From IMG/VR virus record IMGVR_UViG_3300017971_000273: DNA of 64,000 nt. The stretch is one strand, 5' to 3'. The stretch's first letter is position 1. Every line of letters starts with the position of its first letter. Positions 13,247 to 41,450 of the stretch are shown one piece after another. The position numbers were made by a program, and so were the translations under genes. Source of the stretch: a virus. Under the pieces are notes generated by a model. It ran no database searches. It was not told the origin of the DNA and saw only the letters and a program-made list of their open reading frames with translations.

Positions 13247-13446
13247 AAATAGAAAAGATGATCAACATCAAGTTTACCGAACATGAGATTAAAGAGGCTA
13301 TATTGAATTGGTTGGAAAAGAACATAAGCCAGACTTATTATAATCATGTTAGAGACAACCTTAATGATTCTTGTACGGATACTGAGGACGGCCAGATTGT
13401 TCTTGTCGTAAATGGAGCCATGAAGGAGGATCCAAATGATTCTTGA
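13243..13446 (+). CDS. hypothetical protein
   Basis: coupled ORF, 67 aa. Confidence 0.55.
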   Translation: MKIEKMINIKFTEHEIKEAILNWLEKNISQTYYNHVRDNLNDSCTDTEDGQIVLVVNGAMKEDPNDS

Positions 13447-14344
13447 TTACGAAAAGCTCGTTGAAGAGATAGTTTGGTATATGAGAAAGCAGGCCAACGA
13501 AGCTCATACAGACAAAGCTGAGATTGATATTTCTGGTGGCGTTGATAGTGCCGTTGTGGCTGCTCTGGCTTGTAGGGCTTTTGGCTCCGAAAATGTAATC
13601 GGGGTTTATAGCGATGTTAATTCTTCCCCCGAGTCTCTTAGACGAGCCAGATTGGTTGCTAAGACTTTTGGATTCAATTTCATAGAGCTACACCTGGCTC
13701 CCGTGTTCTTTACGGTTCGTGCCCAAATTAGGCGAGAGTTTGAGCGTCTTGGGCTCCCTTGGCCTGATGAAAATGAGAACCCAACAACTTACGGCAGCTT
13801 TAGAAGTTGTATCAGGGCGCCCGTTGGGCGCTTCGTGAATAGGTTGTTTGGCGGAGGGATTAGACAAGGAACAGGAAACAGGGATGAAGATCAGTATGTT
13901 CGGTTTTACCAAAAGGGAGGCGATGGAGAAGTCGATTCTAATTGGATTGGTTCCTTGTTTAAGAGCGAAGTATGGGAATTGGCGGAACATCTGGGCGTCC
14001 CAGAGGAGATCATCAATGCCGTTCCTACTCCAGATCTTTGGGGAGTTGGTGAGGAACACAACGACGAAGAAGAGTTAGAAGATCTCTGTGGAGTTCCACT
14101 AACTTACACTCGCCCAGGTCAAGAAGAGATGGGAACTATTGAGTGGTGCAGCAGAGAGGATGAAGATTTTGGCTTGATTCGGGGTTTGGCGGAAGATACT
14201 GACCCCGAGGAGTTCGGCTATACGGAAGAGCAGTGTAAAGTTGTTAGGGCCATGAGGAAAATGGAGAAAGCCACTCGTCATAAGGCTGAGCCGCCCCCAG
14301 AAATCCCACGAGATTACTTGAAGAGAAAAGGTCTGGTGGTATGA
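13436..14344 (+). CDS. nadE: NH3-dependent NAD+ synthetase
   Basis: ISGGVDSAVVAAL PP-loop, GTGNRDE, FYQKGGDG, IGSLFKSEVWELAEHLGVPEEII, PTPDLW; no glutaminase domain. Confidence 0.9.
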   Translation: MILDYEKLVEEIVWYMRKQANEAHTDKAEIDISGGVDSAVVAALACRAFGSENVIGVYSDVNSSPESLRRARLVAKTFGFNFIELHLAPVFFTVRAQIRREFERLGLPWPDENENPTTYGSFRSCIRAPVGRFVNRLFGGGIRQGTGNRDEDQYVRFYQKGGDGEVDSNWIGSLFKSEVWELAEHLGVPEEIINAVPTPDLWGVGEEHNDEEELEDLCGVPLTYTRPGQEEMGTIEWCSREDEDFGLIRGLAEDTDPEEFGYTEEQCKVVRAMRKMEKATRHKAEPPPEIPRDYLKRKGLVV

Positions 14345-15702
14345 TGTTTGAGCGCGACAAAGAATCGACAATAGAATATAGGCGCGACAAGAGAAAGATC
14401 AAGGAGAAGATCAGAAAGGCCATAGCCGTTGGTAGAGCTGGCTTTGAGATATATTTGGCCATCAAGAAGAAGGATCTTATATATGCGGGCATGAGTTTGG
14501 CCAGCACTTACGATGCTCTTGAAAAGATCTTTGAAAAAGAGGAGAAGGATCTTTTGTCCAGACTGCGCGATACTGGTCTGAAGCCCATCCTTTATAGGAT
14601 GGAACGCCTTGTTTATTATGCTCTACAAGAGATTGACTATCCTTACTCCACTCCTTTCGTTAAGAAAGAAGAGGGCAGTGATATTAGAACTGTTCTTTAT
14701 GAGTTGCCTGGTTGTGATGCCTATTTTGCTATTGAAAATGGGTCTTTAGAAGGGATGTGGGCAGAGGACGAGGATAAGTTTATTGATGCCTTCTCGAAAG
14801 TCGTTCGAGAAAACATGGGCCAAAACATCTCGGTTGTTATGGGCATAGAGGGTTGGAACACATTCATCCGCATTAGAGAGATAGAGATTCCGCTGGATAC
14901 ATACGTTTCTACTTTCGATGAGGGAAAGTTCTTCGATAATATCAAGAGGTTCCAGAAGATGAATCTCAATCGATCTTCCCTACTTTTTGGTCCGCCCGGT
15001 TGTGGAAAGACGACTCTGGCCGCTAAAATAGCCAGTATGCTCGATGGCCAGCTTATAGTGATAGATGCTCCTGCTCTCAACTTTGCGTCGGAGTATTCTC
15101 TTCCCTTGGAGAAGATCTTTAGGGCTCTTTCTCCGAGCGTCGTTTTGTTTGATGATATGGATAGGATTGGAGAGCAGGGATTAGATATGCTGCTGGGCAC
15201 TGTCGAAGCGCTCAACAGATATAAGGGAAGTGGCAACGTAGTAATCATGGGCGCCGTGAATCATCTGGGCGAGTTGCCCGAGCCGATGAGGCGCCCTGGA
15301 AGATTCGATGAGATCATCATGTTTGATTTTCCCAATGTTGAACAGCGCAGAGCGATAGTCAAAGCCTACCTTGATTCTTTCGAGATGCGCCTGGCCAATG
15401 CTTATCTTGATGAAGTTGCTGAAATTACTGAAGGTATGACGCCTGCTTATTTGAGAGAAGTGGCTCTCCAGATTACTGTTAGACAGTATGGTGAAATCAA
15501 GGAGGCGATTACCGAGGGTAAGTTTGAGGAATTGAAAGAGGTTGTGGAGCACATGAAGACGATGGCTGGTGTGTGCAATGAAGAGGAGGGTGATGAGCCC
15601 GTAAGCCCAGATGGCCCACAACTGGTAAGCAAAACAGCGAGGAGACTCAAAAGAAGAAAAAGGGGCAACGGCAGGCCAAAAGAAACAGTTTCAACTGGTT
15701 AG
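14341..15702 (+). CDS. AAA+ ATPase
   Basis: Walker A GPPGCGKTT, Walker B VVLFDD, SRH RRPGRFD. Confidence 0.9.
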   Translation: MMFERDKESTIEYRRDKRKIKEKIRKAIAVGRAGFEIYLAIKKKDLIYAGMSLASTYDALEKIFEKEEKDLLSRLRDTGLKPILYRMERLVYYALQEIDYPYSTPFVKKEEGSDIRTVLYELPGCDAYFAIENGSLEGMWAEDEDKFIDAFSKVVRENMGQNISVVMGIEGWNTFIRIREIEIPLDTYVSTFDEGKFFDNIKRFQKMNLNRSSLLFGPPGCGKTTLAAKIASMLDGQLIVIDAPALNFASEYSLPLEKIFRALSPSVVLFDDMDRIGEQGLDMLLGTVEALNRYKGSGNVVIMGAVNHLGELPEPMRRPGRFDEIIMFDFPNVEQRRAIVKAYLDSFEMRLANAYLDEVAEITEGMTPAYLREVALQITVRQYGEIKEAITEGKFEELKEVVEHMKTMAGVCNEEEGDEPVSPDGPQLVSKTARRLKRRKRGNGRPKETVSTG

Positions 15703-15714
15703 GAGAAGGCACCT

Positions 15715-16038
15715 ATGGAAAAATTAAAGATTATTTTTGATATTCTCAGAGATTTTTATAAAGGCAACACCATGCGTCTTGTTATTATGGTAGTTGTAGC
15801 AGCACTGGTAGTTGTTAATGCGGCAAATGGGTTTAGAGGCACTATGAGTGACTTCGGTGCGGGAATTGGCTGGGTGTTTGGTGGCATTCTGTTTTTTCTT
15901 AACGAACTTACCTTAGCCTCTACAGCTAAGGTTAGGGAGATGTTTGCAGCCTTACAAGCGGGCACCGAAGTGTTGGTTAAAGAAAATGAGAAGTTGCGAG
16001 GCCAGCTAAAGGAACAGGCTGAAGATGAAGGGGTTTGA
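15715..16038 (+). CDS. membrane protein with C-terminal coiled coil
   Basis: two TM helices. Confidence 0.6.
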   Translation: MEKLKIIFDILRDFYKGNTMRLVIMVVVAALVVVNAANGFRGTMSDFGAGIGWVFGGILFFLNELTLASTAKVREMFAALQAGTEVLVKENEKLRGQLKEQAEDEGV

Positions 16039-16858
16039 GATTGCTGCCGGTTCTGTGATCGGCAAAGACCACTTGCGGCTCAACAAGAATAACCACGACG
16101 CCTACAATGTTGTCCATAGACCAGACAGTATAGTTGCTGTAGTTTGTGATGGTTGTGGAAGCGGTGCTCACAGCGAAGTGGGAGCTAAGATTGCAGCATA
16201 TATGTTGCCCCACCAGCTTAGACTTATTGCGGATATTGGAGACCTCGACAAAACGGAAGTGACGGGGCTCGTGGAATTGAACGTCAATATCACCGACTTG
16301 GCCGTGAAAATGATCTGGGGGACAGGAAAAGTTGAGGAGAAATTGGTCGGGGTTGTTAAAGACTATTTCCTATTCACCTGTATGGTGGCCATCATTACTA
16401 AGTATTGGGTTGCTATTGCGTCCATTGGTGATGGTGTGTATGCCCTAAACGGAGAGGTCAAAACTATTGGCCCCTTTCCCAATAATGCCCCACCCTATTC
16501 CTCATACGGTATTGTTCCGCAGGCGGTTGATGAACGGTTTAGGAACCCCAAGTTTCAAGTTAATGAGATAATCCTTGCTGAAAATTTCCAGAGCTTAGTG
16601 ATTGGGACAGATGGGCTTGATGACTTTCAGGCTGCCGAGAATAAGAGTATCCCAGGCAAAGATGAGTTGGTTGGGCCACTTAGCCAGTTCTGGACAAAGG
16701 ACAAATACTTCACCAACAAAATGGCTTTACAAAGGCGCCTGGTCAGGATAAATAAAGAAGTGGTGAAGGTAGTTGATGGCGTGGCTACTCGTCAGCATGG
16801 ACACCTGAAGGATGATACAACCGTGGTTGCTATAAGACGGAAAGATGAAAATAGATAA
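16025..16858 (+). CDS. PP2C-family protein phosphatase (YegK/TerY-P type)
   Basis: GKDH...NNHDA, VVCDGCGSG, SIGDG, GTDG, DDTTVV. Confidence 0.88.
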   Translation: MKGFEIAAGSVIGKDHLRLNKNNHDAYNVVHRPDSIVAVVCDGCGSGAHSEVGAKIAAYMLPHQLRLIADIGDLDKTEVTGLVELNVNITDLAVKMIWGTGKVEEKLVGVVKDYFLFTCMVAIITKYWVAIASIGDGVYALNGEVKTIGPFPNNAPPYSSYGIVPQAVDERFRNPKFQVNEIILAENFQSLVIGTDGLDDFQAAENKSIPGKDELVGPLSQFWTKDKYFTNKMALQRRLVRINKEVVKVVDGVATRQHGHLKDDTTVVAIRRKDENR

Positions 16859-17502
16859 TAGTAATAACCACCGGCATCGCCATAAACTCTGGGTTCAGTT
16901 TGCATTTCAGTTTGAGTCGCATCCCCTATACCATCTTGGTGATTTATTTGTGCATGCGCTTCGTCCAAGAGATTTTTGTTGGGGCTACTCATGGTGATAA
17001 TTCCAATTTGGGCCGATCACAGGCGAAAATGGCTAAGTGAGAAACAAGTGAGTGCCGCCACATATAATATGGGCAACTTCCTGTTGAACTATATTAGACC
17101 AAGCATAGTTCTTGCTGGACACAAACTACTTGTGGGGACATTAGGTGGATGGGGATTAAGCAGGTGGGGAAATGATTGAGCCAATTCGTTCTGCGTCAAA
17201 AAGGACCCTTAACTTTTGGCGTCTCCTCACTGGTTTGTTTTTCAACAACCTAAATGAGCTTTGGACCTTTGACGATGAGGACGACACTTTGCTAGGTCTG
17301 GTGTCTTGGGGTTTGAGAAAATGGCTAAAGTGATTAAACTGGTTTATACTTCAGACTTACGAGTGTCCATTGCTCCTCATGTCGGGGCTGTATCCCCGGC
17401 AATATTCTGGATGGGTGTTAATTTTGCCAGAAATAGGTCTGATTTGGGCCAGAATCTTATGTTTAAGACTCTGTTTCTTACCTTGTCTCAAGGAAGGGTT
17501 GC

Positions 17503-19359
17503 ATGATAGTATATCTGAACGGCAAGCAGTATCGTCTTAATCCCGCCGATTCAATCGGCAAGGGTGGCGAGGCAGATATTTTCGCCAAGGGCAACATGGC
17601 CTTCAAGGTTTTCAAACAGCCCAACCACCCAGATTTCCGAGGCTTCCCCCATGAACAACAAGCGGCCAAGATAAGAATAGCCGAGCACCAAACGAAGCTT
17701 CCCGCGTTTCCCAAGAATCTGCCGGGCAGGGTCGTAGCTCCCCATGGCATACTCACCAACAAAAACGGCAAAGAAGTAGTTGGCTATGTGATGCCCTTTC
17801 TTAAAGGCTGCGAAGTTCTCCTGAAGTATTCTGATCGCTCATACAGACAAGCGGGCGTGAGCAACGAAGATGTTATTGAAGTCTTCAAGGATCTTCACGC
17901 CACGGTTAAAGGGATCCATAGGGCTGGAGCAATCATAGGGGACTTCAATGACCTTAACATAATGATAAAGGGCGATGAAGCTCACATAATTGATGCGGAT
18001 AGTTTCCAGTATGGAGGCTTTCTCTGTCATCTTTTCACAGAAAGATTTGTGGATCCGCTACTTTGCGACCCAAATGAAACCAGGCCAATTCTAACCAGGA
18101 GCCACAACGAGGGATCTGATTGGTATGCTTACGCCATTATGCTCATGCAGAGCTTACTTTATGTTGGCCCGTATGGTGGAATCTACAAGCCAAAAGACAA
18201 ATCAAAGAGAGTTAAGCAGGGCGAGAGACCGCTGAAGAGAATCACGGTATTTAATTCAGAGGTTAAGTATCCTAAGCCCGCGACTCATTATGATGTCCTA
18301 CCAGATGATATGCTTCAGCACTTTCATCTGCTATTTCAAGAGGACAAGAGAGGCGAGTATCCAGAGAACCTACTGGATATAAGATGGACAACTTGTATTA
18401 AATGCGGGACAATTCACGCGAAGCGTGTGTGTCCTGGCTGTGCAACTTATTCTCCCATGGCAGTTGTGGAAACAATCAGGGGCAATATCAAGTGCGTTCG
18501 TGTGTTTCAGACGCCTGGCCTCATCATCTACTCCACCGTTCAAAATGATAAGCTGAGATATTTGTATCACAAAGATAATAGATTCATTAGGGAAAATGAA
18601 GTAGAAGTGGTAAAGGGCTCGTTGAGCCCCACGATGAGATTTAGAATCAAGGGCAAGGAAACGTTGATTGGTAGTAATGGTCAGTTTGTTTCCATAGTTC
18701 CCGGCGGCCAGCCAAGCAAGGTTGCTGTGGATAGCCTCAATATGCTTACGCTTTTTGATTCAAATGGGAATCATAAATATTGGTCTTATGATGGTCAATT
18801 GTTTAGAGATGAAAGGGTTGGGCCAAAATACATAGGAGATGTGCTTAGAGGACAAACACTCTTTTGGGTTGGCCCCAAGTTTGGTTTCGGTTTTTACCGA
18901 GCGGGTAATATTAATGTTGGTTTTCTATTCAACGCCGATAAAGGAGGAATCAACGATACGGTGAAGATGCCTATAATTCCAGGGCAGTTGATTGATGCCA
19001 CCTGCTATTTTGCTGGTGACTGGGCATGGTTTTTCTATTCAACAAGGGAGAAAGGCCAAACGATTAACAGGTGTGTTATTATCAAATCCGACGGTAGAGT
19101 TGGAGATTCGGCAATAGGTATAGAAGGCGATGGAACTTGGCTGGGTAGGATTCGTGGTAAGGCTGCCGCTGGGAACTTCTTGTTTGCCGCCACAGATGAC
19201 GGCATTGTTAGAGTTGAACCAGGCGGCGGGATGCTGGATGTTGCTAAAGAGTTTCCTGATACTGAGCCGTTTGTTGATTCAGGCTGCCACCTTCTAGTTT
19301 CCAAAAATGGCCTATATGTTGTGTCCAAACACGAGATTAGGCTGCTTACGATTTCATAA
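17503..19359 (+). CDS. Ser/Thr kinase (YegI/TerY-P type) with zinc finger and beta-rich C-terminal region
   Basis: IGKGGEADIF, AFKVF, IGDFNDLNIMI, IDADSFQ, SDWYAY; CIKC...CPGC. Confidence 0.85.
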   Translation: MIVYLNGKQYRLNPADSIGKGGEADIFAKGNMAFKVFKQPNHPDFRGFPHEQQAAKIRIAEHQTKLPAFPKNLPGRVVAPHGILTNKNGKEVVGYVMPFLKGCEVLLKYSDRSYRQAGVSNEDVIEVFKDLHATVKGIHRAGAIIGDFNDLNIMIKGDEAHIIDADSFQYGGFLCHLFTERFVDPLLCDPNETRPILTRSHNEGSDWYAYAIMLMQSLLYVGPYGGIYKPKDKSKRVKQGERPLKRITVFNSEVKYPKPATHYDVLPDDMLQHFHLLFQEDKRGEYPENLLDIRWTTCIKCGTIHAKRVCPGCATYSPMAVVETIRGNIKCVRVFQTPGLIIYSTVQNDKLRYLYHKDNRFIRENEVEVVKGSLSPTMRFRIKGKETLIGSNGQFVSIVPGGQPSKVAVDSLNMLTLFDSNGNHKYWSYDGQLFRDERVGPKYIGDVLRGQTLFWVGPKFGFGFYRAGNINVGFLFNADKGGINDTVKMPIIPGQLIDATCYFAGDWAWFFYSTREKGQTINRCVIIKSDGRVGDSAIGIEGDGTWLGRIRGKAAAGNFLFAATDDGIVRVEPGGGMLDVAKEFPDTEPFVDSGCHLLVSKNGLYVVSKHEIRLLTIS

Positions 19360-19370
19360 GGAGAAAACAA

Positions 19371-20396
19371 ATGAGTAAATTGGATCTTCCGGTTCCCTCG
19401 CACTTTGATGCGAGCAAAGTTAATGAGCTTTTCCATGTTAAGTATGAGGATATTTTCACCAGGGCAAAGGAGTGGGCCAAGCGACATGACCTCCAGCCTG
19501 CGGCCAAAGATAAGCTTCGCGTCTGCTTGATTGCTATTGACTGCCAGAATACTTTCTGTATGCCGTATCCCGATGGGGAGCTTTCTGTGGTAGATGCGGA
19601 CAAAGACATCGTGCGGCTTTGTGAGTTTATCTATAGGAATATGGATGTAATTACCAATATTTCTCCCACGATGGACACTCACTTGAGCAAGCAGATTTTC
19701 CACCAGGATTTCTGGGTCAATGATGAGGGTGAGCATCCTCCTCCCGGTGTCACTATGATTTCTGCGGACGATGTTAAGAAGGGCGTGTGGAAGGTGAATC
19801 CGGTTATGGCCAGCGTTCTTAACGCCAGCTACACCGGGCTTCATAAGTATGCCCTTCACTACACACAGACTCTCGCTGACGAGGGCAAGTATGCTTTGCT
19901 TATCTGGCCACACCACGCGATGCTTGGTGGAGTTGGCCATGCGCTTGTTCCCCTTCTTGAAGAAGCCATCTTTTTCCATGACATCGCTCGTGGAAGCCAG
20001 ACCGACTTCCAGATTAAGGGTGGAAATCCCTTGACTGAGAACTATTCGGTGCTTCGTCCAGAAGTTCTTACCACCGCAAAGGGCGTTGCTATTGCCCAGA
20101 AGAACACTGCTTTTATCGAGAAGCTGCTCAACTTTGATGCGGTTGTGATTGCTGGCCAGGCTAAGTCTCACTGTGTTGCTTGGACGATTGACGATCTGCT
20201 CAATGAGATTAACACCAAGGATCCCAAGCTGGTCAAGAAGGTTTATCTTCTGGAGGATTGCACCTCTCCGGTTGTGATTCCTGGCATCGATTTCACCGAC
20301 CAGGCTAACGAGGCTTTCGAGAGGTTCCAGAAGGCTGGGATGCATGTTGTTAAATCTACTGACCCAATTACCACCTGGGATGGGATTACCCTATGA
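19371..20396 (+). CDS. nicotinamidase-like cysteine hydrolase (isochorismatase superfamily)
   Basis: AAGGAG SD; IDCQNTF (Asp), MDTH and WPHH (metal ligands), IKGG (Lys), AKSHCV (Cys). Confidence 0.8.
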   Translation: MSKLDLPVPSHFDASKVNELFHVKYEDIFTRAKEWAKRHDLQPAAKDKLRVCLIAIDCQNTFCMPYPDGELSVVDADKDIVRLCEFIYRNMDVITNISPTMDTHLSKQIFHQDFWVNDEGEHPPPGVTMISADDVKKGVWKVNPVMASVLNASYTGLHKYALHYTQTLADEGKYALLIWPHHAMLGGVGHALVPLLEEAIFFHDIARGSQTDFQIKGGNPLTENYSVLRPEVLTTAKGVAIAQKNTAFIEKLLNFDAVVIAGQAKSHCVAWTIDDLLNEINTKDPKLVKKVYLLEDCTSPVVIPGIDFTDQANEAFERFQKAGMHVVKSTDPITTWDGITL

Positions 20397-20938
20397 TACA
20401 CTACCTAACTGGCGATGCCACAGAGCCCCAGGTTAATAAGGGAGCGAGAATCATCGCTCATATTTGTAATGATCTTGGAGGTTGGGGGAGCGGTTTTGTT
20501 GTTGCCCTGTCTAACAAGTGGCCTGAACCAGAGAGAAAGTATAGAGAGTGGTTCAAGTGGGCTACGGACGACACAAACAAAACGCTGCCGCTGGGGCAAA
20601 TACAACTCGTCCAGGTGAAAGATCCTAAAAAGGAAGGTCCGCTCTATGTGTGCAACATGATCGCACAAGAGGGATACACTGCTCCAGACCATCCAATTGC
20701 CGTTAGGTATGATATGCTTTGTGCATGTCTGGCTGATTTGAACAACTGGATTGGTCACTATTGTCATCTAAAGAGTCGTATGGTTCTGCCGCCCACTAAC
20801 ACTCACCTTTCAATCCATATGCCGCGAATTGGTTGCGGTTTGGGCGGCGGAGATTGGGGAATTGTAAGTGAGCTTATCGGAGCTTTGCTTACAGCGTGCG
20901 ATGTGTATGTTTATGATTTGGAGGAATCAAATGAGTGA
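20393..20938 (+). CDS. macrodomain protein (Poa1p/TARG1-like ADP-ribose hydrolase)
   Basis: YLTGDAT, IAHICNDLGGWGSGFVVAL, MPRIGCGLGGGDW. Confidence 0.88.
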   Translation: MIHYLTGDATEPQVNKGARIIAHICNDLGGWGSGFVVALSNKWPEPERKYREWFKWATDDTNKTLPLGQIQLVQVKDPKKEGPLYVCNMIAQEGYTAPDHPIAVRYDMLCACLADLNNWIGHYCHLKSRMVLPPTNTHLSIHMPRIGCGLGGGDWGIVSELIGALLTACDVYVYDLEESNE

Positions 20939-21722
20939 AAGCAAGAATATTAATGAGCTTTTTGAAGATGCTCAGGATGAAGGGCTTCTTTCTCCTGAGT
21001 CTTCCCAGGCTCTAATGGTTCATGATATTGGTCAGCAGATTCAGGCTGGCTTGGGTGTGGATGTTGATGATGTCGAGGCAAGTGAGGTTGTGCTTGTTTC
21101 CGTAATGGTTGATGATTCTGGTTCTATTCGATTCTCTGGGAATGCCCAGCCGATTCGTGATGGCCACAATGAGTTGATTCGTGCTATGACGGATTCCAAG
21201 CAGCAGGATAATATCTTGGCCCATACTCGATACTTGAACGGCGGGGTTCTTTATCCGTATTGTTCGCTTGATCAAGCCGTTGAAATGGATAGAAGCAATT
21301 ACGACCCCAATCAGGGCACGCCCCTTTATGATGAAACAGTTTCTTTTCTGGGCACTGTTCTCGCCAAGACTTTCGAGTTTGCGGACAACGGAGTTCCTGT
21401 GAGAACGATTTCTCTTGTTATGACTGATGGACGTGACCTACACTCCAGTCGCCATGATGCTGCGGCTGTAAAGAACATTGTGGCTGATATGCTTGGCCAA
21501 GAAAATCATATCGTTGCGGCCATGGGTTTTGATGATGGTGGTGCTACAAGCTTTCGTGAGGTTTTCAAAGAGATGGGGCTCAGGGACGAGTGGATTCTCA
21601 CGCCACAGAACACCCCAACTGAAATTCGCAGGGCTTTCCAGTTGTTCAGCAAGAGTGCAGTTCAGGCCAGCCAAAGCAGCATGAACTTTAGCAAGACGGC
21701 AATGGGAGGTTTCGGTGGGTAA
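20931..21722 (+). CDS. TerY-like vWA-domain protein
   Basis: GGAGG SD before ATG 20931; VDDSGS MIDAS, GTPLYD, MTDG. Confidence 0.82.
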   Translation: MSESKNINELFEDAQDEGLLSPESSQALMVHDIGQQIQAGLGVDVDDVEASEVVLVSVMVDDSGSIRFSGNAQPIRDGHNELIRAMTDSKQQDNILAHTRYLNGGVLYPYCSLDQAVEMDRSNYDPNQGTPLYDETVSFLGTVLAKTFEFADNGVPVRTISLVMTDGRDLHSSRHDAAAVKNIVADMLGQENHIVAAMGFDDGGATSFREVFKEMGLRDEWILTPQNTPTEIRRAFQLFSKSAVQASQSSMNFSKTAMGGFGG

Positions 21723-22197: not shown

Positions 22198-22207
22198 GGA
22201 GATTAAA

Positions 22208-22759
22208 ATGAGAATAGGAATTGTAGGAGGAAGCTTCAATCCGCCCCACATAGGCCATGCTGCAATGATTCAATATGCTCTGGCCAGGGAAGATTTCGAT
22301 GAGATTTTGGTTGCTCCCTGCTATAAGCATCCGTTCAAAGATAAGATGCTGTCTTTTTATAATCGGTTATATATGTGCAACATCATGGTTAGGAAGCTTT
22401 TCCCTCATAATGTCATGGCTGTAGATTATGAAAAGGAAATAAACACTGGAAGAACTTACGACTTGTTGAAATACTTAATTGCAGACTATCCGGAAGCTCG
22501 CTATACTCTTATCTTGGGTGATGACCTGTTCTTTGAGTTTGATAAAAAGTGGTATAAGAGTGATGAAATTAGAGAGTTGGCGGATATTATGTGGGTTCCT
22601 GCCCAGCTATACGCCAGCAATCCAGTGTTGCAGATTCGTTCTTCTTATATACGCTGGCTCCTTAAACAAGGAAAAGATGTTTCCCACATGGTTCCGAAGG
22701 CGGTTTTGGAATATCTGGAATCACGAAAGCTCGTGGAGAGTCTCAAGGAGATGCCGTGA
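22208..22759 (+). CDS. nadD: nicotinate/nicotinamide mononucleotide adenylyltransferase
   Basis: GIVGGSFNPPHIGH (HxGH), PCYKHPFK, RLYMC, TYDLL, ILGDD, IRSSYIR. Confidence 0.85.
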   Translation: MRIGIVGGSFNPPHIGHAAMIQYALAREDFDEILVAPCYKHPFKDKMLSFYNRLYMCNIMVRKLFPHNVMAVDYEKEINTGRTYDLLKYLIADYPEARYTLILGDDLFFEFDKKWYKSDEIRELADIMWVPAQLYASNPVLQIRSSYIRWLLKQGKDVSHMVPKAVLEYLESRKLVESLKEMP

Positions 22760-23164: not shown

Positions 23165-23165
23165 A

Positions 23166-31403: not shown

Positions 31404-31406
31404 AGT

Positions 31407-33749
31407 ATGAAAGCGACTCTACCTATTTTGCCCATTCGAGACCCCGACCTGGTGGTTTTTCCTGGAAACTTTTGCGAGGTGGAAGTTGGCCGAGAGTTCT
31501 CTGTAAACGCCATAAATGTGGCCAAGAATAACGAGATTAACATCATTGTAGGTTTGCAGACAGACAAAGATGTTGATGAGCCAGTGGCCAAAGACTTTCT
31601 CGGTCAATGCACGGAGGCAGAGATTAAAAGTGTGTTGAAAGCAGGCGCAAAAGATGAGCCACATCTTAGAGTCATTCTCGTTGGTGTTAGGCGGGCCCAT
31701 CTCAAAATTGTTGGGCTTACAGAAGGAGAAGAGCAGTATCTCCAGGGTGAGATTGAATATGTGCAAGAAGAAGAGGTTGAGATCACCGATGATATCAAGG
31801 AGCAGGTGAAGGTTCTTTACGATACGATCTCTGAGCACCTACCTAGTATTGCTCTCAAGAAGAAAGAAACTCCCAAAAACAGCCAAGATCTTGCGGCTTT
31901 TTTGGACGACATCGCTGGTCAGCTACAGGTTGATAAACAGGGAATCGTTTCGCGAGAGAAACTCCTTGATCTTCTGCATATACCAAGCCCAGCGGAAAGA
32001 CTGAAAAGACTTGTTGCGATGGTCACGGAGTTGTCCAAAAATACTGAAGTTTTGATTTCAAATGACCCACAACAGCAGGGCGAAGATCCCATGCAGGCTG
32101 AAATTAGGCGGCTGGCCGAGAAGCTCCAGAAGTCCGGAATGCCTGAAGAAAACATGAAGATTGCACAGCAGGAAATGAGGCGGCTCTCTATGACCCCTCC
32201 TAATGGCGCAGAGTTCCAAGTTATGTTTAATTACTTGGAAACGTTGGCTTCTTTGCCGTGGGGCAAGAGCACTGAAGACAGCTTGGATATTGAGAAGGGC
32301 AAAGAGATTCTGGACAGAGATCACTTTGGTCTTAAGAAACCAAAAGAAAGAATCCTGGAGTTTCTTGCGGTTAAGAAGCTTGCTCCAGAGAGAAAGGGCT
32401 CGATTCTTTGCTTTATTGGCCCTCCTGGAACAGGTAAAACGAGCCTTGGCAAGAGCATCGCAGAAGCTATGGGACGTGAGTTTATCCGCACTTCGCTTGG
32501 TGGTGTCCATGATGAGGCAGAGATTCGTGGCCACAGAAGAACCTATGTTGGCGCGATGCCAGGTAGGATTATCCAGCTCATCAAGAAGGTTGGTGTTAAT
32601 AATCCGGTGTTCATGTTGGACGAGTTGGATAAGTTGGGCAGAGACTTCAGAGGCGATCCTGGTTCGGCACTGTTGGAGGTTCTTGACCCGGAGCAGAATC
32701 ACTCTTTCAACGATAATTACCTCGGCATGTCTTTTGACTTGTCGAATGTGTTCTTCATTGCTACAATTAATACCAGGGGCAACATCCAGCCCGCTCTGTT
32801 AGACAGGATGGAGATTATCAAGCTGCCTGGTTATTCCCCGCATGATAAGCTACAGATTGCCAAGAAGCACTTGATTCCCAAGCAGAAAGAGGAGAAGGGG
32901 CTCAAGGATCATGAGATTGCTTTCTCCAAGAATGCAATCAACAAAATCATCGAGGAATATACGAGTGAAGCTGGTGTTAGATCCCTCGAAAGAGAGTGCG
33001 GCAGTGTTTTCAGGAAGGTTGCTGTTCAGGTTGCCTCTAAGAAGAAGCCGCCCGCCATTATAAAGACCGACATGATTCACAAGTATCTGGGGCCAAGTAA
33101 GATCTTTACTCAGCAGGCGATTGAGGAGCCCTCTGTTGGTGTTGCTACTGGACTCGCTTGGGCGGTTAGTGGGGGCTCACTGCTGTTTGTGGAATCTGCG
33201 TTGGTCAAAGGCAAGGGCAAAATTGTTCTGACAGGCAATCTTGGCAAGGTTCTTAAAGAATCTGCGTCAGCAGCCTATACTTGGATTAGGTCCAACGCTG
33301 ACAAGTTTGGTCTTAGCCCTGAAAAGTTCGCTGAGAATAATGTCCACATTCACTTTCCAGCTGGAGCGACACCTAAGGATGGCCCGAGCGCTGGAATCGC
33401 CATTGCTGCATCAATCTTATCTGCCCTCACGGACAGGCCAATTAGAAATGATGTTGGAATGACTGGTGAGATTTCTTTGCGCGGGAGAGTCCTCCCTATT
33501 GGTGGCCTTCTGGAGAAGACTCTTGCGGCTCACAGAGCCAGCCTTAGTGAAGTTGTGTTCCCCATAAGAAACAAGTGCGACCTGGAGGAGGTTCCTAACG
33601 ATGTGAAGAATAGCATCAAACTAACGCCTGTATCCAACTTGGAAGAGGCGCTGGATATAATTATGATGGGCACCAATGGCAGCGTGGATAAGAAGCCCAT
33701 GGGGAAAGTGAACTCCGGTGAGGAGTCGCTTATCAATTTGGAAGGTTAA
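31407..33749 (+). CDS. lon: ATP-dependent Lon protease
   Basis: N-terminal LON domain, GPPGTGKT, HRRTYVGAMPG, LDELDK, PKDGPSAG (Ser), GGLLEK (Lys). Confidence 0.97.
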   Translation: MKATLPILPIRDPDLVVFPGNFCEVEVGREFSVNAINVAKNNEINIIVGLQTDKDVDEPVAKDFLGQCTEAEIKSVLKAGAKDEPHLRVILVGVRRAHLKIVGLTEGEEQYLQGEIEYVQEEEVEITDDIKEQVKVLYDTISEHLPSIALKKKETPKNSQDLAAFLDDIAGQLQVDKQGIVSREKLLDLLHIPSPAERLKRLVAMVTELSKNTEVLISNDPQQQGEDPMQAEIRRLAEKLQKSGMPEENMKIAQQEMRRLSMTPPNGAEFQVMFNYLETLASLPWGKSTEDSLDIEKGKEILDRDHFGLKKPKERILEFLAVKKLAPERKGSILCFIGPPGTGKTSLGKSIAEAMGREFIRTSLGGVHDEAEIRGHRRTYVGAMPGRIIQLIKKVGVNNPVFMLDELDKLGRDFRGDPGSALLEVLDPEQNHSFNDNYLGMSFDLSNVFFIATINTRGNIQPALLDRMEIIKLPGYSPHDKLQIAKKHLIPKQKEEKGLKDHEIAFSKNAINKIIEEYTSEAGVRSLERECGSVFRKVAVQVASKKKPPAIIKTDMIHKYLGPSKIFTQQAIEEPSVGVATGLAWAVSGGSLLFVESALVKGKGKIVLTGNLGKVLKESASAAYTWIRSNADKFGLSPEKFAENNVHIHFPAGATPKDGPSAGIAIAASILSALTDRPIRNDVGMTGEISLRGRVLPIGGLLEKTLAAHRASLSEVVFPIRNKCDLEEVPNDVKNSIKLTPVSNLEEALDIIMMGTNGSVDKKPMGKVNSGEESLINLEG

Positions 33750-35182: not shown

Positions 35183-35246
35183 AGAGAGGAGGTGAGAAGT
35201 TTTTGTCTATGGATATGTATTTTTTTGAGTTTAAAAAGGAGGAAAC

Positions 35247-35579: not shown

Positions 35580-35590
35580 AGGAGGAAGAA

Positions 35591-35773
35591 ATGTCTGAAG
35601 AATTCACTATTTACCGTTTCATGGATGAAGAGATCAAGGCTCCTGCTGATATGAGTGTTGATGAGGTTAGGGCTGTTTGGGAAGACTGCCACGCGGCCAT
35701 CGCCAATGCGGAAGTTGTCGAGAATCCCGACGGCAGCTACACCTTTGCACTTCGTGCTGGTTCCAAGGGGTAA
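35591..35773 (+). CDS. ubiquitin-like protein (Prok_Ub / PRTRC protein C-like)
   Basis: AAGGAGG SD; YRF...SVDEVR...IANA...YTFALRAGSKG matches the PRTRC-C C-terminus (YTF..xGxKG); terminal Gly. Confidence 0.75.
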   Translation: MSEEFTIYRFMDEEIKAPADMSVDEVRAVWEDCHAAIANAEVVENPDGSYTFALRAGSKG

Positions 35774-35779
35774 AAACTA

Positions 35780-35809
35780 GGCCCGCCTGGGGTCGCTCCC
35801 AGGCGGGCC
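35780..35809 (+). other. perfect 12-bp GC-rich hairpin without a U-tract, just after the Ubl stop
   Basis: GGCCCGCCTGGG-GTCGCT-CCCAGGCGGGCC. Confidence 0.8.
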
Positions 35810-35825
35810 ACTACGAGGTTTCAAT

Positions 35826-36080
35826 ATGAATCCAAAACAGATATTTGATAATTGTGATGAGCTAAGAGAGTTTAATGCGGATTGTAAAGAGCTGCTTGAT
35901 AAACTCATGGCCATTAAAACGCCCATGAGCTTTGATGATGACTTTGCAACTGACGCAGAACTCCAAGCTTTAGAGGATGAGCTTGATAGGATGGCTGCGC
36001 AGATTCCGCAAGCCGTTAATATCAAGCAAATAATTTTGAACTTGCCAGCGGTTAGGGCAACTAAGATTAACTTTATTTAA
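35826..36080 (+). CDS. hypothetical protein, in frame with the next ORF across one TAA
   Basis: GAGG SD; TAA 36078-36080 followed in frame by GGC GTG. Confidence 0.55.
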   Translation: MNPKQIFDNCDELREFNADCKELLDKLMAIKTPMSFDDDFATDAELQALEDELDRMAAQIPQAVNIKQIILNLPAVRATKINFI

Positions 36081-36083
36081 GGC

Positions 36084-36911
36084 GTGAGGGATATGTTTTC
36101 GTTTAGACAGCAATACATGCAGATAGATTTTCTGCGCCTTTTTAGGTTGTGTCGTTCTTTGGGTGTAGCAAAGCGTAAAAGAAAAATGCCCACGGAATAT
36201 GATGGCGACAATACGGCCACCGCTGCTGGAAGAAGGCTTTTAAAATCTCTCTTAGAAAAACACCTGTTTGTCGGTTCCAAAGTCCAGACTCAATATGAGA
36301 GTCTCCGCGTAAATATTTCGCGCGATGATAGGCAAATGCTCAATACAATCAATACCCTGACGTATGACACTCGCCTAAGGCAAGCATGTGGAGATATGGG
36401 AGCAAATGCGGTTGAGAAATATAATCAGCTCGCAACTGGAACCTCTTATGTAGCTCCTTATCTTCCATATGAAATAAAGGTATGTGCTATTAACCGATCC
36501 AACACAATGGGTGGATACAGACCCAGCGAGAAGTTTTATGAGTGTGCGCTAGATTGTATTGAATTCAAAGAGTTGTGGGACACTAATATACAATCGTTGC
36601 GCGACTTCTATGATTTTTTCCAGACAAAACGGGATGAAATAGAGGCTGAGCAAAGAAGGCAGCGTGAAGAACAAAGGCGTGCAGGAGAGGAAGCAAGGTA
36701 CAGGGCCGACAGAGAGTTGGCGGCGCAAAGAGCAGCCCGAGATGCAGAAGCAGCGGAAGCCAATAGAATAGAAGAGGAGAGACGAGCGGCTGTTGCCGCA
36801 CAGGTCTCTGCGGAAGCTGATAGAAGAAGAGAGAATGCACAGAACAGATTTGAGCAAGCCCTTAGCAGATTCAGAGGAAATAGGTCTGCTGGAGGTGGAG
36901 GAGGAGCTTAA
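36084..36911 (+). CDS. hypothetical protein with long C-terminal charged coiled coil, inside the Ubl cassette
   Basis: E/R/A-rich tail; start uncertain. Confidence 0.7.
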   Translation: MRDMFSFRQQYMQIDFLRLFRLCRSLGVAKRKRKMPTEYDGDNTATAAGRRLLKSLLEKHLFVGSKVQTQYESLRVNISRDDRQMLNTINTLTYDTRLRQACGDMGANAVEKYNQLATGTSYVAPYLPYEIKVCAINRSNTMGGYRPSEKFYECALDCIEFKELWDTNIQSLRDFYDFFQTKRDEIEAEQRRQREEQRRAGEEARYRADRELAAQRAARDAEAAEANRIEEERRAAVAAQVSAEADRRRENAQNRFEQALSRFRGNRSAGGGGGA

Positions 36912-37603
36912 TGGATGCTGGAAGTTATGACCTGACTGCGAGAATATCTTCAAACTCCTCGGAGGTGCAGGTTAGTTTAATTGGTCCTGATGGGACAGTG
37001 GGTCAGAAGACTATATCTGTCGATGATTTAATAACACAACTCGCAAGTTCTCATCGCATATCTACTGACATTTTGCCGCGAGGGACAAGGTTCTATAAAG
37101 GAAGCCCCTCGGATTATTACATAGGTGTGGAATTGATTCCAAAGAAGCGTCCATTACAGATAGACAATGTTGAAGATGGCGTTAGAAAGTTTTTGCCAGT
37201 TCCAAGAAGCTTGTTTGTGATGCACATTAAAAACAACCGGTCCTTTAACACTTGGCTTTTCTGCCTTGCTGCGCCACTTAATAATTGGTCAGAGTCGTTA
37301 TATGGTTTCCCATATGGTAATGTATATGAGGATGGTAGAATTTGCTGGGGTGATGCACGTTTGGGCAACATCACAAAACCCATGGATCTGATCGGCGCCC
37401 TTGCTATGTTCTTTGATTCTGGGTTTAATGGGGATTTGATTAATGAGGGCGCTTTTGTCCACCCGACAGTGGGCCCCGGAGAAGACCCCGTAGACAACTT
37501 GTGGGGCTTGGTTAAGTATGTAGAGAATATGGAAGAGTTTCCTGAGGATTTAATGTACAAGAAGGGCTATACGTTGGCCCAAGTTATTGAAGGGAGTAGC
37601 TAA
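36911..37603 (+). CDS. prokaryotic E2 family D protein (PRTRC protein B-like)
   Basis: GGAGGAG SD; FPYGNVYEDGRICWG with putative catalytic Cys; FFDSGFNGDL. Confidence 0.8.
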   Translation: MDAGSYDLTARISSNSSEVQVSLIGPDGTVGQKTISVDDLITQLASSHRISTDILPRGTRFYKGSPSDYYIGVELIPKKRPLQIDNVEDGVRKFLPVPRSLFVMHIKNNRSFNTWLFCLAAPLNNWSESLYGFPYGNVYEDGRICWGDARLGNITKPMDLIGALAMFFDSGFNGDLINEGAFVHPTVGPGEDPVDNLWGLVKYVENMEEFPEDLMYKKGYTLAQVIEGSS

Positions 37604-38643
37604 TGAGCGTGTGGGGAAGTTATAAGAAGCCGAAGCCAAAGGTGGACAAGGACAAGAGACTGGCTCTCCAGAAGATGATGGTTGGCCACTACGTAGAAAG
37701 CATCCCAGAAGACTGCAAGAAGAAGATCACATATGTTCTTCAGGGTGATGGTCTTTGGGAGCGCAGGATTAATAGGCTTGGGACTTTTGATTCGAGAATT
37801 GCCAAGGTGGCCGTCCCTGGTCTGGATGAAACCATGGTTAGTGGTTGGGAGCTTAATGTTCCAAAGATTCCCATCAATCTTTTGGGGACTACTGTGGCCT
37901 TCTTCCGTCGCATCTATAGGAAACACTCAAGCGAAGTGTTCTTACAGTTCTACTACGATCAAAAAGAAGAGAAATATATTCTTCACTGCCCTAAGCAGGT
38001 GGTTAGTGGGGCGTCTGTAAATTACAAGAATGACCCCGAATATGATTCAAAGATTCTTGTCTTTGAGATTCATAGCCACGGTAACATGGGCGCTTCATTC
38101 TCTATGGTTGATGATGCAGATGAGAAGTCTGATCGTTTCTATGGAGTGATTGGAAGCATCACTGATTTCTTCCCAGACATGGTGTTGCGCTTGGTGGTAG
38201 GTGGTAGAGAGTATGAAGTAGATGTTGAAGATTTGTTCGAGATGGACGATGAGCTTTATCACGCCGAAAATTTCCCGAGCGATTGGGTCGATAGAATAAA
38301 GAAGAAAAAGCCGAAGAAGACCAAAAGAACCAGGGGCAAGGGCGGCAACCAAGCGTACACTTTTCCCGGCGGCGGTTGGCCCGGCAGACAGATTTCGATG
38401 TTTGGTTCTGGTGCAGAGATAGATGAAATCGATGATGTAGCTAAACTCTTTGATGATGAGCATCTTGGCCACAGCATGCATTATCTACCCGATGACGATG
38501 ATGACGATGATGAGGATGAGGGGTTTTATGTCAGAGAGGATGATAAGCTCTGGTTTGTAAAGGATGGCGAGAAGCAGTGGTATGTGGAGCGTGGCCAGCG
38601 CGTTGAAGCCGAGCCAACTGATCATAGAGGAAAGAAGTTCTAA
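37603..38643 (+). CDS. JAB/MPN metallopeptidase (PRTRC protein A-like) with acidic C-terminal extension
   Basis: SEVFLQFYYD, PKQVVSGASVNY, EIHSHGNMGASFSMVDDADE (HxH...S..D). Confidence 0.85.
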   Translation: MSVWGSYKKPKPKVDKDKRLALQKMMVGHYVESIPEDCKKKITYVLQGDGLWERRINRLGTFDSRIAKVAVPGLDETMVSGWELNVPKIPINLLGTTVAFFRRIYRKHSSEVFLQFYYDQKEEKYILHCPKQVVSGASVNYKNDPEYDSKILVFEIHSHGNMGASFSMVDDADEKSDRFYGVIGSITDFFPDMVLRLVVGGREYEVDVEDLFEMDDELYHAENFPSDWVDRIKKKKPKKTKRTRGKGGNQAYTFPGGGWPGRQISMFGSGAEIDEIDDVAKLFDDEHLGHSMHYLPDDDDDDDEDEGFYVREDDKLWFVKDGEKQWYVERGQRVEAEPTDHRGKKF

Positions 38644-38644
38644 A

Positions 38645-39532
38645 ATGGCTGCGAAGAAAATTAAGATACTCCAGAAAGTTTATTCTCTGGCCGGCTATAG
38701 GCCCGTCAGAACCATTCTTGTTATTGGTTGTGGCGGGACTGGTGGGCACTTGATCCCCCATTTGGCTAGGTATGTAAAAGTCAAAAACGATTCTGGTGAG
38801 CGCAGAACTGTAAATCTAATTCTGGCCGATGGAGATATGGTCGAGGAAAAGAATCTTAAAAGACAGCACTTTATTATGCAGGACATCTCCAAGAACAAGG
38901 CCATGGTGATGGCGGAAAGATATTCTTCCGCTTTTGGTTTGGAGATTAAAGCAATCCCCAATGATTTAGAGAAGGTGGAGGATATAAATGATGCTCTGAA
39001 TCACTACTCAATCGGGAGTGATTCTGCCTATATGGTGATAGGCTGTGTGGATAATAACGCCTCTCGTAGGGTAATACATGAGTGGTTTACAACTGAAGAC
39101 TTTCATGCTAAGTTCTGGATTGATTCTGGAAACGAAGAAAAGGCGGGGCAGGTTGTCTGTGGCTACGCGCCAACTAGGAGAGGACACTATGGAATTATAA
39201 AGGCTGGCCCTTTTAGTGGTAATGCGGTTGGAGAATTCAGTTTGCCCTGTGTTATGGATCACTATCCAGAACTCATAGACAGTGAAGATGGTTTCAACTC
39301 CGAGCTTTCTTGTGCAGACAGGGCGCTCTCGGCGCCCCAAAATATGCAGGTTAATGTAAGTGCCGCAACCATCATAATGAACTACGCTAGAAAGGCCATT
39401 GACCGTGAAGACATCAGGTCTCACGGAGTTGAATTTAGCATAGATAATGTATATAATACTAAACTAAACACTGAGGAGAATTTGAATAAAGTTCCCGACG
39501 AACGCAAACGATTTTGGGAGAAACAAAGATGA
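38645..39532 (+). CDS. ThiF/E1-family activating enzyme (PRTRC ThiF-like)
   Basis: VIGCGGTGG, DGDMVEEKNLKRQ, NKA, GCVDN, WIDSGN, LSCA putative catalytic Cys. Confidence 0.88.
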   Translation: MAAKKIKILQKVYSLAGYRPVRTILVIGCGGTGGHLIPHLARYVKVKNDSGERRTVNLILADGDMVEEKNLKRQHFIMQDISKNKAMVMAERYSSAFGLEIKAIPNDLEKVEDINDALNHYSIGSDSAYMVIGCVDNNASRRVIHEWFTTEDFHAKFWIDSGNEEKAGQVVCGYAPTRRGHYGIIKAGPFSGNAVGEFSLPCVMDHYPELIDSEDGFNSELSCADRALSAPQNMQVNVSAATIIMNYARKAIDREDIRSHGVEFSIDNVYNTKLNTEENLNKVPDERKRFWEKQR

Positions 39533-39972
39533 GTAAAATTCTTAATGCTAATGATGTTCATGATGAGTTGCCGGTTGCTACTGACGAAGAGTGTGCTGCT
39601 AGAAGGAATGCCCTCATCTATGTAGGTATGATTAGACCGTCCAAAAACCCAGAGCTATTTATCAAAAAGGGAAATCCCGTGGCTCTATCAACTAAGGAAG
39701 CCAGCGCTAGAAAGCGACAGGAACTAATCGACAGGGGAATTATCACCCCCGAGCCAGTTTCAGTTTCTTCCGGGCTGGTGCGCCCGCCTCGTGGAAAGGA
39801 AGAGGGACAGTATAAACCTCGCCCTATAAGAAGCGATGCTGAATACGAAAAGCGCAAACGGGCTTATTTTCGCCTGATGCAGGAAATGCTGATCGCAAGA
39901 CGAGAGTTGAGGCTCGTGTTTAATCAGTGGGATGAAGCAAAAATGGGGCCTTGGCCAAACTGGTATTTCTAA
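39529..39972 (+). CDS. hypothetical protein
   Basis: ATGA coupling to the E1 gene. Confidence 0.65.
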   Translation: MSKILNANDVHDELPVATDEECAARRNALIYVGMIRPSKNPELFIKKGNPVALSTKEASARKRQELIDRGIITPEPVSVSSGLVRPPRGKEEGQYKPRPIRSDAEYEKRKRAYFRLMQEMLIARRELRLVFNQWDEAKMGPWPNWYF

Positions 39973-40101
39973 TGGCCGGCTGGAATCCTGTTTTGGGTAG
40001 GGTTTATATCCACGAATTTTATTATAATGACGAGTGGGTTTTGGTCTATGATCGATGGGGACGCAAATTTCTGTTCCCAGAACAGGAGATATGGTGGTAA
40101 T

Positions 40102-41450
40102 ATGGACGCTTTAAAGACTGACCTTTATCAGCTCACAATGATGGCGGCTTACTATGTGAAAGGTCTTCACAAAAAGAAAGTGACTTGTGAAGGTTTTGTG
40201 AGGAAGTTGCCCCCAGAGAGAAGGTTTCTCGTGATGGCTGGGACCGAGGAGATTAGAGACTTCCTCACCAGCCTGCGATTCACGGCAGACGACATCAAGT
40301 ATCTCAGGGAAGTTAAAGCTCTCAAGCCAGCTTTCTCTATGTCTAACTTCGCTAAATACTTGGAAGATTTCTCCTTCAGGGGTGACTTCTGGGCGATGGC
40401 GGAAGGCGAGATTGCTTTGCTGGTGAGCCACTTATAAGGGTGTCTGGAACGCTGCCGGAAGTTCATATGGCCGAAACCTTTGCCCTTTCGGTGTTGAACC
40501 ATGATATTAAGGTTGCCTCCAAGGCGGCGAGAATTGTTCTCGCCGCCCGTGGGCGACCAGTCTTAGAGTTTGGCACCAGAAGAACCCACCATGAAGCTGC
40601 TATTAGAGCAGCCCGAGCTGCCTATCTTGCTGGGTTTGCGGCAACCTCCAATGTTGAGGCGGGCAGAACATACGGCATCCCTGTTGCTGGAACAATGTCT
40701 CATATGTGGGTCATGGTTTCTAAGAGTGAATCCAGAGCGTTCAGTGATTTTAAGGATGTGTATAGAAGCCCTGTGTTACTAATTGACACCTACGATACGG
40801 ACATGGGCGCTGTTTATGCCGCACAAATTCCGCTACTACAAGGAGTAAGGCTGGACTCTGGAAATCTGGAAACATTGTCCAAAAAAGTTAGGGGAATTTT
40901 GGATAGTAATGGCAAGCAGTCAGCTAAGATTATTGTGTCTAATGACCTCAACGAATATGCCATAGACAACCTGGCCCGTTGTGGTGCCCCTATCGACACT
41001 TTTGCTGTGGGCACTGAGCTTGTTGTTTCCAGAGATGTTCCTTCTCTGGGGGCTGTGTATAAAGTTGTATATGACGATACAGATGATAGACCACTTATGA
41101 AACTGTCCGCAGGCAAGAAGACCTTTCCTGGCCGCAAACAAGTCTTCTTGGATCAGCGAAATGGTGAGTGGAAACATCTATTAGCAATAGAGGGAGCGGT
41201 TGAACCAGAAGAAAACCTCACGCCTCTTCTGGACTGTAATATAAAAGATGGCGAGATTATTGAGGAAAGCGTTGTGGACTTAGAAGTTTCTCGTAAGTAT
41301 TGCAATGCTGCCCTCATTAACCTGCACTCCAATCTGGCTTCTTTGGAACCGAAAGAGACTCAGGTTCCTGTACACCCAGATAAGAGCTTAGAGGAGTTAT
41401 TTAAGAAAGCTATGCAAGATGGATCTAATTTGGGGAAAAGCAGGGACTAG
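40102..41450 (+). CDS. pncB: nicotinate phosphoribosyltransferase, split by an apparent one-base deletion near 40416-40418
   Basis: LKTDLYQLTM; EFGTRRTH; GTMSHMWV; LIDTYD; GVRLDSG; VSNDLNE; VGTELV; VYKV; KKTFPGRKQV; adding one T restores EIAFAGEPLIRVSG. Confidence 0.9.

Follow-up and report, generated by a model that had tools for sequence, protein, structure and literature searches.

Nicotinamide adenine dinucleotide (NAD+) forms a central battleground of phages and bacteria. As reported, three phage systems that rebuild NAD+ in the infected cell have been proven by experiment, and none of them proceeds via nicotinate. NARP1 (Adps and Namat), NARP2 (Nampt and Nmnat), and NARP3 (PnuC and NadR), the last published in August 2026 (PMC13464706), are two-gene, non-deamidating systems that experimentally defeat NADase defenses. 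In bacteria, PncA, PncB, NadD, and NadE constitute nicotinamide salvage I plus the universal steps and occur in NrtR regulons (Rodionov et al. 2008, PMC2330246). In this study, we analyzed a stretch of 64,000 nucleotides from the IMG/VR record IMGVR_UViG_3300017971_000273 (the window, meaning this whole stretch), which encodes the same four families, with the same order of reactions as bacterial salvage I and the Preiss–Handler route. In contrast to the bacterial salvage genes, those of the window are encoded on a phage-like genome and extend over 28 kb, and the PncA step belongs to a 341-residue long form that lies in a cassette with genes for a PP2C phosphatase, a kinase-like protein, and a von Willebrand factor A (vWA)-like protein. 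The function that we propose, rebuilding NAD+ in the infected cell from precursors or from products of its breakdown, is that of the NARP systems; unlike them, the window route would take four steps, pass through nicotinate intermediates, and need ammonia.

Gene sets of this kind have been recorded in other large phages. In the annotation of Bacillus phage G (JN638751), gp275 is an isochorismatase/PncA-like protein, gp277 is a nicotinate phosphoribosyltransferase (NAPRTase), gp281 is a nicotinate mononucleotide (NaMN) adenylyltransferase, and gp283 is an NAD synthetase, so that all four families occur in one phage of about 0.5 Mb, as in the window. However, the four phage G genes lie within about 6 kb together with a Nudix and a KptA-like gene, its PncA is of the short canonical type, and the annotation of the 12.8 kb viewed shows no kinase/PP2C/vWA cassette. 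When phage G was compared with the window proteins by tblastn, PncB matched at 40% and NadD at 26%, and NadE and PncA were undetected. Both NAD+ recycling and the PncA-like gene are noted in a phage G paper of 2025 (PMC12484599). Additionally, complete salvage or Preiss–Handler gene sets were reported in 2024 for 174 of 668 jumbo phages, and a pncB-nadD-nadE cluster was described in Kuafu_71 (PMC11662467). Similar to the window, the gut "NAD-jumbo phages" of that study combine complete Preiss–Handler sets with NAD+-consuming enzymes. In contrast, their pathway was defined from nicotinate, with pncA mentioned only in passing, whereas the window set includes a nicotinamidase; moreover, they come from animal guts, the Kuafu clade being assigned Bacteroidota hosts, whereas the window DNA was found in sediment and seawater metagenomes. 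An earlier reading of the window from its letters (the sequence-only reading) had proposed a new pathway and a third phage route to NAD+. The route is textbook salvage I plus the universal steps, and since annotations of other giant phages already include this gene set, the window is a further example and no new pathway; as for a third route, NARP3 had already been published. The window adds a sediment/marine example to the catalogued deamidating gene sets, not a new idea.

The enzyme identities are based on sequence, fold, and comparative genomics, and from them we infer that the four gene products probably act together, as a working phage route from nicotinamide to NAD+ that would sustain the NAD+ pool while the cell is infected. 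The four genes are as follows.

13436..14344, + strand: NadE, a single-domain NAD+ synthetase of the NH3-dependent type (PF02540, TIGR00552, SGGVDS, 2e18)
19371..20396, + strand: long-form nicotinamidase of 341 residues, the PncA step (fold, conserved residues, phyletic pattern)
22208..22759, + strand: NadD-family nicotinate/nicotinamide mononucleotide adenylyltransferase (PF01467, motifs, 8aih/1kam)
40102..41450, alternative start 40027, + strand: PncB-type NAPRTase (PF17767, NF006696, 2f7f)

The sequence-only reading had already named these families at these positions, and hidden Markov models, motifs, solved relatives, and fold bear it out; its chain from nicotinamide through nicotinate, NaMN, and nicotinate adenine dinucleotide (NaAD) to NAD+ likewise follows from the four families taken together. 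In the first step, the long-form nicotinamidase would hydrolyze nicotinamide to nicotinate. PncB would then join nicotinate to phosphoribosyl pyrophosphate (PRPP) supplied by the host to give NaMN, presumably with the ATP coupling of its family. The NadD-type enzyme would adenylate NaMN to NaAD, and the single-domain NadE would convert NaAD to NAD+ with ATP and ammonia. The likeliest purpose would be to keep up the NAD+ pool in the infected cell. The nicotinamide could be released by NAD+ consumers, including the poly(ADP-ribose) polymerase (PARP) of the phage and any host NADases, and its recycling would also clear nicotinamide, which inhibits PARPs and sirtuins.

The proposed route is supported by the phage G precedent, the PARP and macrodomain genes in the window, the linkage of NadE to the cassette, and the NrtR gene beside the cassette in three cyanobacteria. 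When each window protein was compared by tblastn with 50,697 phage records, at most 24 records were matched; given this rarity, chance is no sensible explanation for the four-gene set. In a pattern scan of IMG/VR, a broad alignment was too diverse, and a narrower one gave three loci.

Based on its fold, its catalytic and metal residues, and its co-distribution with pncB, the predicted product of 19371–20396 is a long-form nicotinamidase of class EC 3.5.1.19. Its scores lie below the curated cut-offs (PF00857, 19.4 vs. 27 bits; NF008623, 17.7 vs. 174 bits) because of an N-terminal extension of 50 residues and an insert of ~100 residues. The same low scores, extension, and insert could point to some other amidohydrolase of the isochorismatase superfamily, in which case the route would begin at nicotinate. 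We consider this very unlikely, since the residues, the closest matches, and the phyletic pattern all point to a nicotinamidase. The long form is a family of proteins of ~345 residues, with more than 8000 word-sharing hits and ~65% identity in cyanobacteria. When a profile of 60 members was compared with the PDB, the first five matches were all nicotinamidases. The catalytic triad of Asp57, Lys216, and Cys268 is kept in at least 90% of these 60 members and aligns to the motifs of yeast Pnc1 and the A. baumannii nicotinamidase, with the triad numbering that we assume for these reference enzymes. The metal site, to which the pyridine nitrogen binds in nicotinamidases, is kept as well, with Asp102 and His104 (MDTH) and His182 (WPHH) aligned to DWH and WPVH of Pnc1, and the pocket residues Phe62, Trp179, and Tyr225 are conserved in the family. 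For the AlphaFold2 model of the product (predicted local distance difference test score 96.9), which has an isochorismatase-like fold, a Foldseek search placed nicotinamidases in the top 14 PDB rows and the top 6 Swiss-Prot hits, the best being 2wta (E 2.8e-13, template modeling score 0.79 by target). In the structure and profile matches, nicotinamidases rank above RutB, biuret hydrolase, and CSHase.

The phyletic pattern was surveyed in 151 sampled cyanobacterial genomes. The long form is present in 47 and pncB in 65 of these genomes, and all 47 carriers of the long form have pncB. The short PncA model matched in 10 genomes, all of them pncB-positive, with several of the matches beside pncB, and nine of the 10 are without the long form. 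The long form and the short PncA are almost mutually exclusive (Fisher p 1.3e-5, a statistic that ignores shared ancestry). This pattern, with the long form always accompanied by pncB, is expected if the long form takes the place of PncA as the partner of PncB. Collectively, the data are evidence for the long cyanobacterial-type "isochorismatase" as the nicotinamidase at work in genomes with pncB.

Other members of this family differ in size and context. Long-form variants of 583–614 residues have an N-terminal extension of ~240 residues, which matches no Pfam family. The published huge phages LR756511 (159992–160660) and LR756500 (45016–45591) encode a long-form nicotinamidase and NadE plus a protein that scores 177–201 bits against PF04095, compared with 34 for the window PncB; this protein is therefore probably of the Nampt type, which would make a different mix of salvage enzymes.

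For PncB, which was compared with the type II (NAPRT) enzymes, the N domain (40027–40437) matches PF17767 at 75.8 bits (cut-off 32.6), and the catalytic part (40440–41450) matches NF006696 at 304 bits, with the E. faecalis NAPRTase 2f7f as its closest solved relative (1e-45). The top NCBIfam models are all nicotinate phosphoribosyltransferases. The GTMSHM motif aligns to GTHAHS of 2f7f, and the His of the GT-x-x-H motif, which we take to be the phospho-histidine, is kept. On TIGR01513, whose cut-off of 297.4 bits applies to the whole protein, the two halves scored separately reach 97.9 and 279.5 bits; intact relatives of 58–87% identity reach 385–409 bits and also exceed the cut-off of NF009131.

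The sequence-only reading had noted an apparent frameshift in pncB. It is present in the window record, in which frame 1 stops at the TAA of 40435–40437 and the catalytic part is read on in the −1 frame after a switch within GCTTTGCTGG. To the extent that this record is correct, with its TTT run and its stop, pncB could be a true pseudogene or need a programmed −1 frameshift, and the phage route would be broken or specially regulated; the low-depth contigs of one public run (X3), which break near the T run, could be taken in the same sense. We regard this as extremely improbable. Logan contigs of four public runs (X1–X4) were compared over the pncB stretch, and the T run at 40413–40415, TTT in the window, is TTTT in the contigs of X1 (220 kb, 175x) and X2 (130 kb, 169x), where the extra T behind 40415 is the sole difference over 1.6 kb. 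With the added T, pncB encodes 474 residues from 40027 with no stop, and the repaired junction AMAEGEIAFAGEPLIRV is identical in six intact relatives (58–87% identity). The window itself may have been assembled from X1 and X2, or these two runs may be a single data set that was filed twice, and the difference is thus to be read as an assembly-level discrepancy, not as two independent populations. X3 and X4 cover the stretch in low-depth pieces whose gaps are uninformative on the T run. The sole other short PncB homolog, a relative of 328 residues considered as a second frameshifted case, was rejected as such, since it ends at a contig end and carries no frameshift. The pncB frameshift is unsupported, and an intact allele is present at high depth.

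The place of pncB, straight after the E1 gene and a small open reading frame (ORF), is the same in three relatives (L006, L007, and L011). No match was found when the pncB region was compared with the phage collection by megablast or when IMG/VR was scanned with the C-terminal PncB protein, and a look-up of the truncated 327-residue product returned no record. A homolog of ribosomal protein S21 (41717–42010; PF01165, 1.1e-16) lies two genes past pncB and holds the same place in L006, L007, and L017.

NadE, a protein of 302 residues, matches PF02540 at 2e-28 (99.6 bits) and TIGR00552 at 102 bits (cut-off 63.65), and its PP-loop reads SGGVDS. The synthetase domain is the only one matched, with no fused glutaminase (CN-hydrolase) domain, and the closest solved relative is the NH3-dependent NAD synthetase of P. 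horikoshii (2e18, 2e-23). A copy of 62% identity occupies the same place in a relative of the window, L003. We considered a Francisella-type NMN synthetase, which is not separable by sequence here; the closest relatives of NadE are, in contrast, ordinary NH3-dependent NAD synthetases. The NadD-family protein matches PF01467 (CTP_transf_like) at 1.6e-11, and its top NCBIfam models are all NaMN/NMN adenylyltransferases. Its motifs GGSFNPPHIGH (HxGH) and QIRSSYIR (of the C-terminal SxxxxR type) align to solved NadD structures, and its closest solved relatives are bacterial NadD proteins (8aih and 1kam) rather than NadM or NadR. Among 5.8 billion proteins, four close homologs were found, every one of them on a tiny contig.

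Several observations weigh against a self-contained phage route. NadD is below the equivalog cut-offs (TIGR00482, 102.1 vs. 112.45 bits; NF006479, 102.9 vs. 164 bits), which makes 22208–22759 a predicted divergent member of the NadD family, and neither its choice of NaMN or NMN nor the nitrogen donor of NadE, ammonia or another, is readable from the sequence. Moreover, the nearest long relative retains NadE, the nicotinamidase, and PncB, but no NadD was found in the ~45 kb of it that were examined; all four genes may therefore have come together recently, and a host NadD may normally perform this step. The four genes are also not one operon. Their dispersal, raised by the sequence-only reading, holds for pncB, which lies about 17 kb away, but not for NadE, the nicotinamidase, and NadD, which lie within one 9.3-kb block. 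Among the window ORFs scanned, no PRPP synthetase, Nampt, NadR, or Nudix gene was found, in agreement with the earlier remark on PRPP synthetase; Nampt, NadR, Nudix, and Prs genes may exist elsewhere on the 452-kb contig to which the window appears to belong. Finally, there are no structural genes within the window, and its phage identity is deduced from gene content, PHROG matches, and relatives that are listed in IMG/VR or named "uncultured phage".

The window is best read as a section of a phage-like contig that measures about 452 kb. An ENA metagenome contig of 452,619 bp carries the nicotinamidase gene without a single letter changed. The sizeable ORFs at 12–43 kb are all on the + strand and closely packed, with a steadily positive GC skew. 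The gene content resembles that of huge phages, with a DnaJ-kinase fusion, a CCA-adding enzyme, Lon, a proteasome-like subunit, and a Ubl/E2/JAB/E1 set, as well as an ATP-dependent ligase, HSP20, PARP, GroEL, IF3, ribosomal protein S21, and APS kinase. Several PHROG families are matched by window proteins, and the syntenic relatives are IMG/VR-listed contigs and "uncultured phage" genomes of 460–600 kb.

The nicotinamidase gene is embedded in a cassette at 16025–21722, in the order PP2C, ~620-residue kinase-like protein, nicotinamidase, and ~263-residue protein. The other cassette genes and two associated genes are as follows.

16025..16858, + strand: PP2C phosphatase, cassette gene 1 (PF13672, 5.5e-17)
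17503..19359, + strand: divergent protein-kinase-like protein of ~620 residues, cassette gene 2 (Pkinase, 0.0029 only)
20931..21722, + strand: vWA-like protein of 263 residues, last cassette gene (Atlas VWA-cluster neighbors)
20393..20938, + strand: macrodomain protein (phmmer against the PDB; PHROG 335)
14341–15702, + strand: AAA+ ATPase, its start overlapping the stop of NadE

The matches behind the kinase and vWA assignments are weak. The Atlas feature and structure neighbors of the ~620-residue protein are kinase-domain clusters of Cyanobacteriota, Myxococcota, and Uroviricota, and the 263-residue protein, which has no Pfam match, has VWA clusters among its Atlas neighbors; both are leads only. 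As judged by tblastn of the window proteins on the loci compared, one Logan relative and three IMG/VR contigs have the same cassette order, LR756500 has part of it, and it recurs in three cyanobacterial chromosomes. The cassette was seen across L003 and L012–L016; the PP2C position is shared by L003, L012–L014, and the cyanobacterial operons, and the 263-residue gene follows the nicotinamidase in L003, L012–L014, L010, and the cyanobacteria. In these loci, the triad of PP2C, kinase-like, and vWA-like genes always has the nicotinamidase between the kinase and the vWA gene. In the three cyanobacteria, the gene directly upstream of the cassette is divergently transcribed and encodes an NrtR-type regulator (Nudix plus NrtR winged helix), and in one of them, an ADP-ribosylglycohydrolase gene lies within the cassette operon. 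NrtR represses NAD genes and is responsive to ADP-ribose (PMC2330246). Within the window, no NrtR was found.

In the window, NadE, the macrodomain gene, and NadD flank or interrupt the cassette: NadE and the AAA+ gene are upstream, the macrodomain gene starts with a 4-nt overlap of the nicotinamidase stop, and NadD begins 0.5 kb past the vWA gene. The distance between NadE and the cassette is 2–3 kb in the window, in L003, the relative of 71% identity, and in LR756500. The variable parts of the locus are NadD and the macrodomain. In phmmer searches of the PDB, the macrodomain protein matches the macrodomain proteins 2afc, 2fg1, and 5e3b at ~1e-33, and it matches PHROG 335 at 2.6e-29. L003 instead carries a macrodomain gene of 34% identity upstream of NadE, and in L014, the macrodomain gene lies 2.6 kb downstream of the cassette. 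In L003, moreover, the AAA+ gene overlaps the PP2C start instead, and the AAA+ protein may therefore belong to the phage version of the cassette.

The inheritance of the nicotinamidase within the PP2C/kinase-like/vWA-like cassette suggests that the first salvage step is regulated. A complex prediction for the nicotinamidase and the vWA-like protein scored 0.00 and carries no weight either way. A fuller form of this idea, which we think unlikely as a whole, is a regulated loop in which a kinase/PP2C/vWA switch would gate the nicotinamidase and send nicotinamide released by PARP or NADases through PncB, NadD, and NadE when needed. If true, the loop would be a deamidating, phospho-controlled counterpart of the NARP systems, and the cassette, which is NrtR-controlled in bacteria, would be an undescribed layer of NAD-salvage control common to cyanobacteria and huge phages. 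No paper on the combination of kinase, PP2C, and vWA genes with a nicotinamidase was found in the literature, and a phage copy that is linked with NadE, NadD, and a macrodomain could be of use in finding out what the cassette does. The cassette context is the part worth following, and the pathway itself is of less interest.

The cassette also bears on whether the four enzymes act in concert. The nicotinamidase is fixed in it across phages and bacteria and is translationally coupled to the macrodomain gene, several cyanomyoviruses and a Pelagibacter phage have an annotated NadE and none of the other three (PHROGs includes NAD synthetase families), and the examined parts of the relative with the other three genes yielded no NadD. 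These observations would fit four independent auxiliary genes that each top up a host step, with a nicotinamidase that mainly clears nicotinamide or signals within the cassette, for example by relieving PARP inhibition. This seems rather improbable to us, in that the co-occurrence of all 47 cyanobacterial long forms with pncB and their near-exclusion of the short PncA indicate that the nicotinamidase product goes to PncB, and NadE and PncB are conserved beside the nicotinamidase in relatives. A concerted route from nicotinamide to NAD+ thus remains our preferred reading.

A putative source of nicotinamide is encoded in the window itself, where the sequence-only reading had correctly reported a phage PARP.

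51911..53413, + strand: protein with WGR, PARP-regulatory, and PARP-catalytic domains (PF00644 3.6e-24, PF02877 4.4e-13, PF05406 2e-12)

Its product is predicted to be an NAD+ consumer that releases nicotinamide. The gene sits between those for a trypsin-like protease and GroEL. It was not seen at the syntenic place (15–18.6 kb) of the 460-kb JGI relative L007, and PARP is therefore no fixed partner of the NAD genes in the clade.

The same enzymes could serve a dedicated, NARP-like counter-defense, in which NAD+ would be rebuilt from the nicotinamide released when Thoeris, SIR2, DSR, or TIR proteins cleave it. A counter-defense role is plausible and compatible with the recycling route preferred here: nicotinamide is the product of NADase effectors, NARP1, NARP2, and NARP3 are cases in which phages rebuild NAD+ with other enzymes, and the cassette is tied to ADP-ribose sensing through NrtR in bacteria. 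As a dedicated function, however, it is possible but doubtful. Three ATP-using steps together with PRPP and ammonia would make the route slower and costlier than the two-gene NARP systems, and the gain over the host pathway is uncertain, given that NadD and NadE are already present in most bacterial hosts, as PncA and PncB often are. Nothing found in the window would recycle the ADP-ribose half of cleaved NAD+; among the ORFs scanned, there are no NARP component families (Adps/Namat, Nampt/Nmnat, or PnuC/NadR), and the phosphoribosyltransferase is of the nicotinate type. Our literature search found no experiment on a deamidating phage route, on its counter-defense role, or on its effect against NADase defenses, for which this clean, apparently intact four-gene set offers test material.

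Beyond the NAD genes, the window is rich in genes of proteostasis and translation, including a proteasome-like subunit, Lon, a Ubl/E2/JAB/E1 cassette, GroEL, and IF3, and it also encodes APS kinase; together these lie at 23154–23717, 31407–33749, 35591–39532, 55646–57259, 58282–59309, and 61986–62534. An ankyrin-repeat protein is encoded at 62498–62908.

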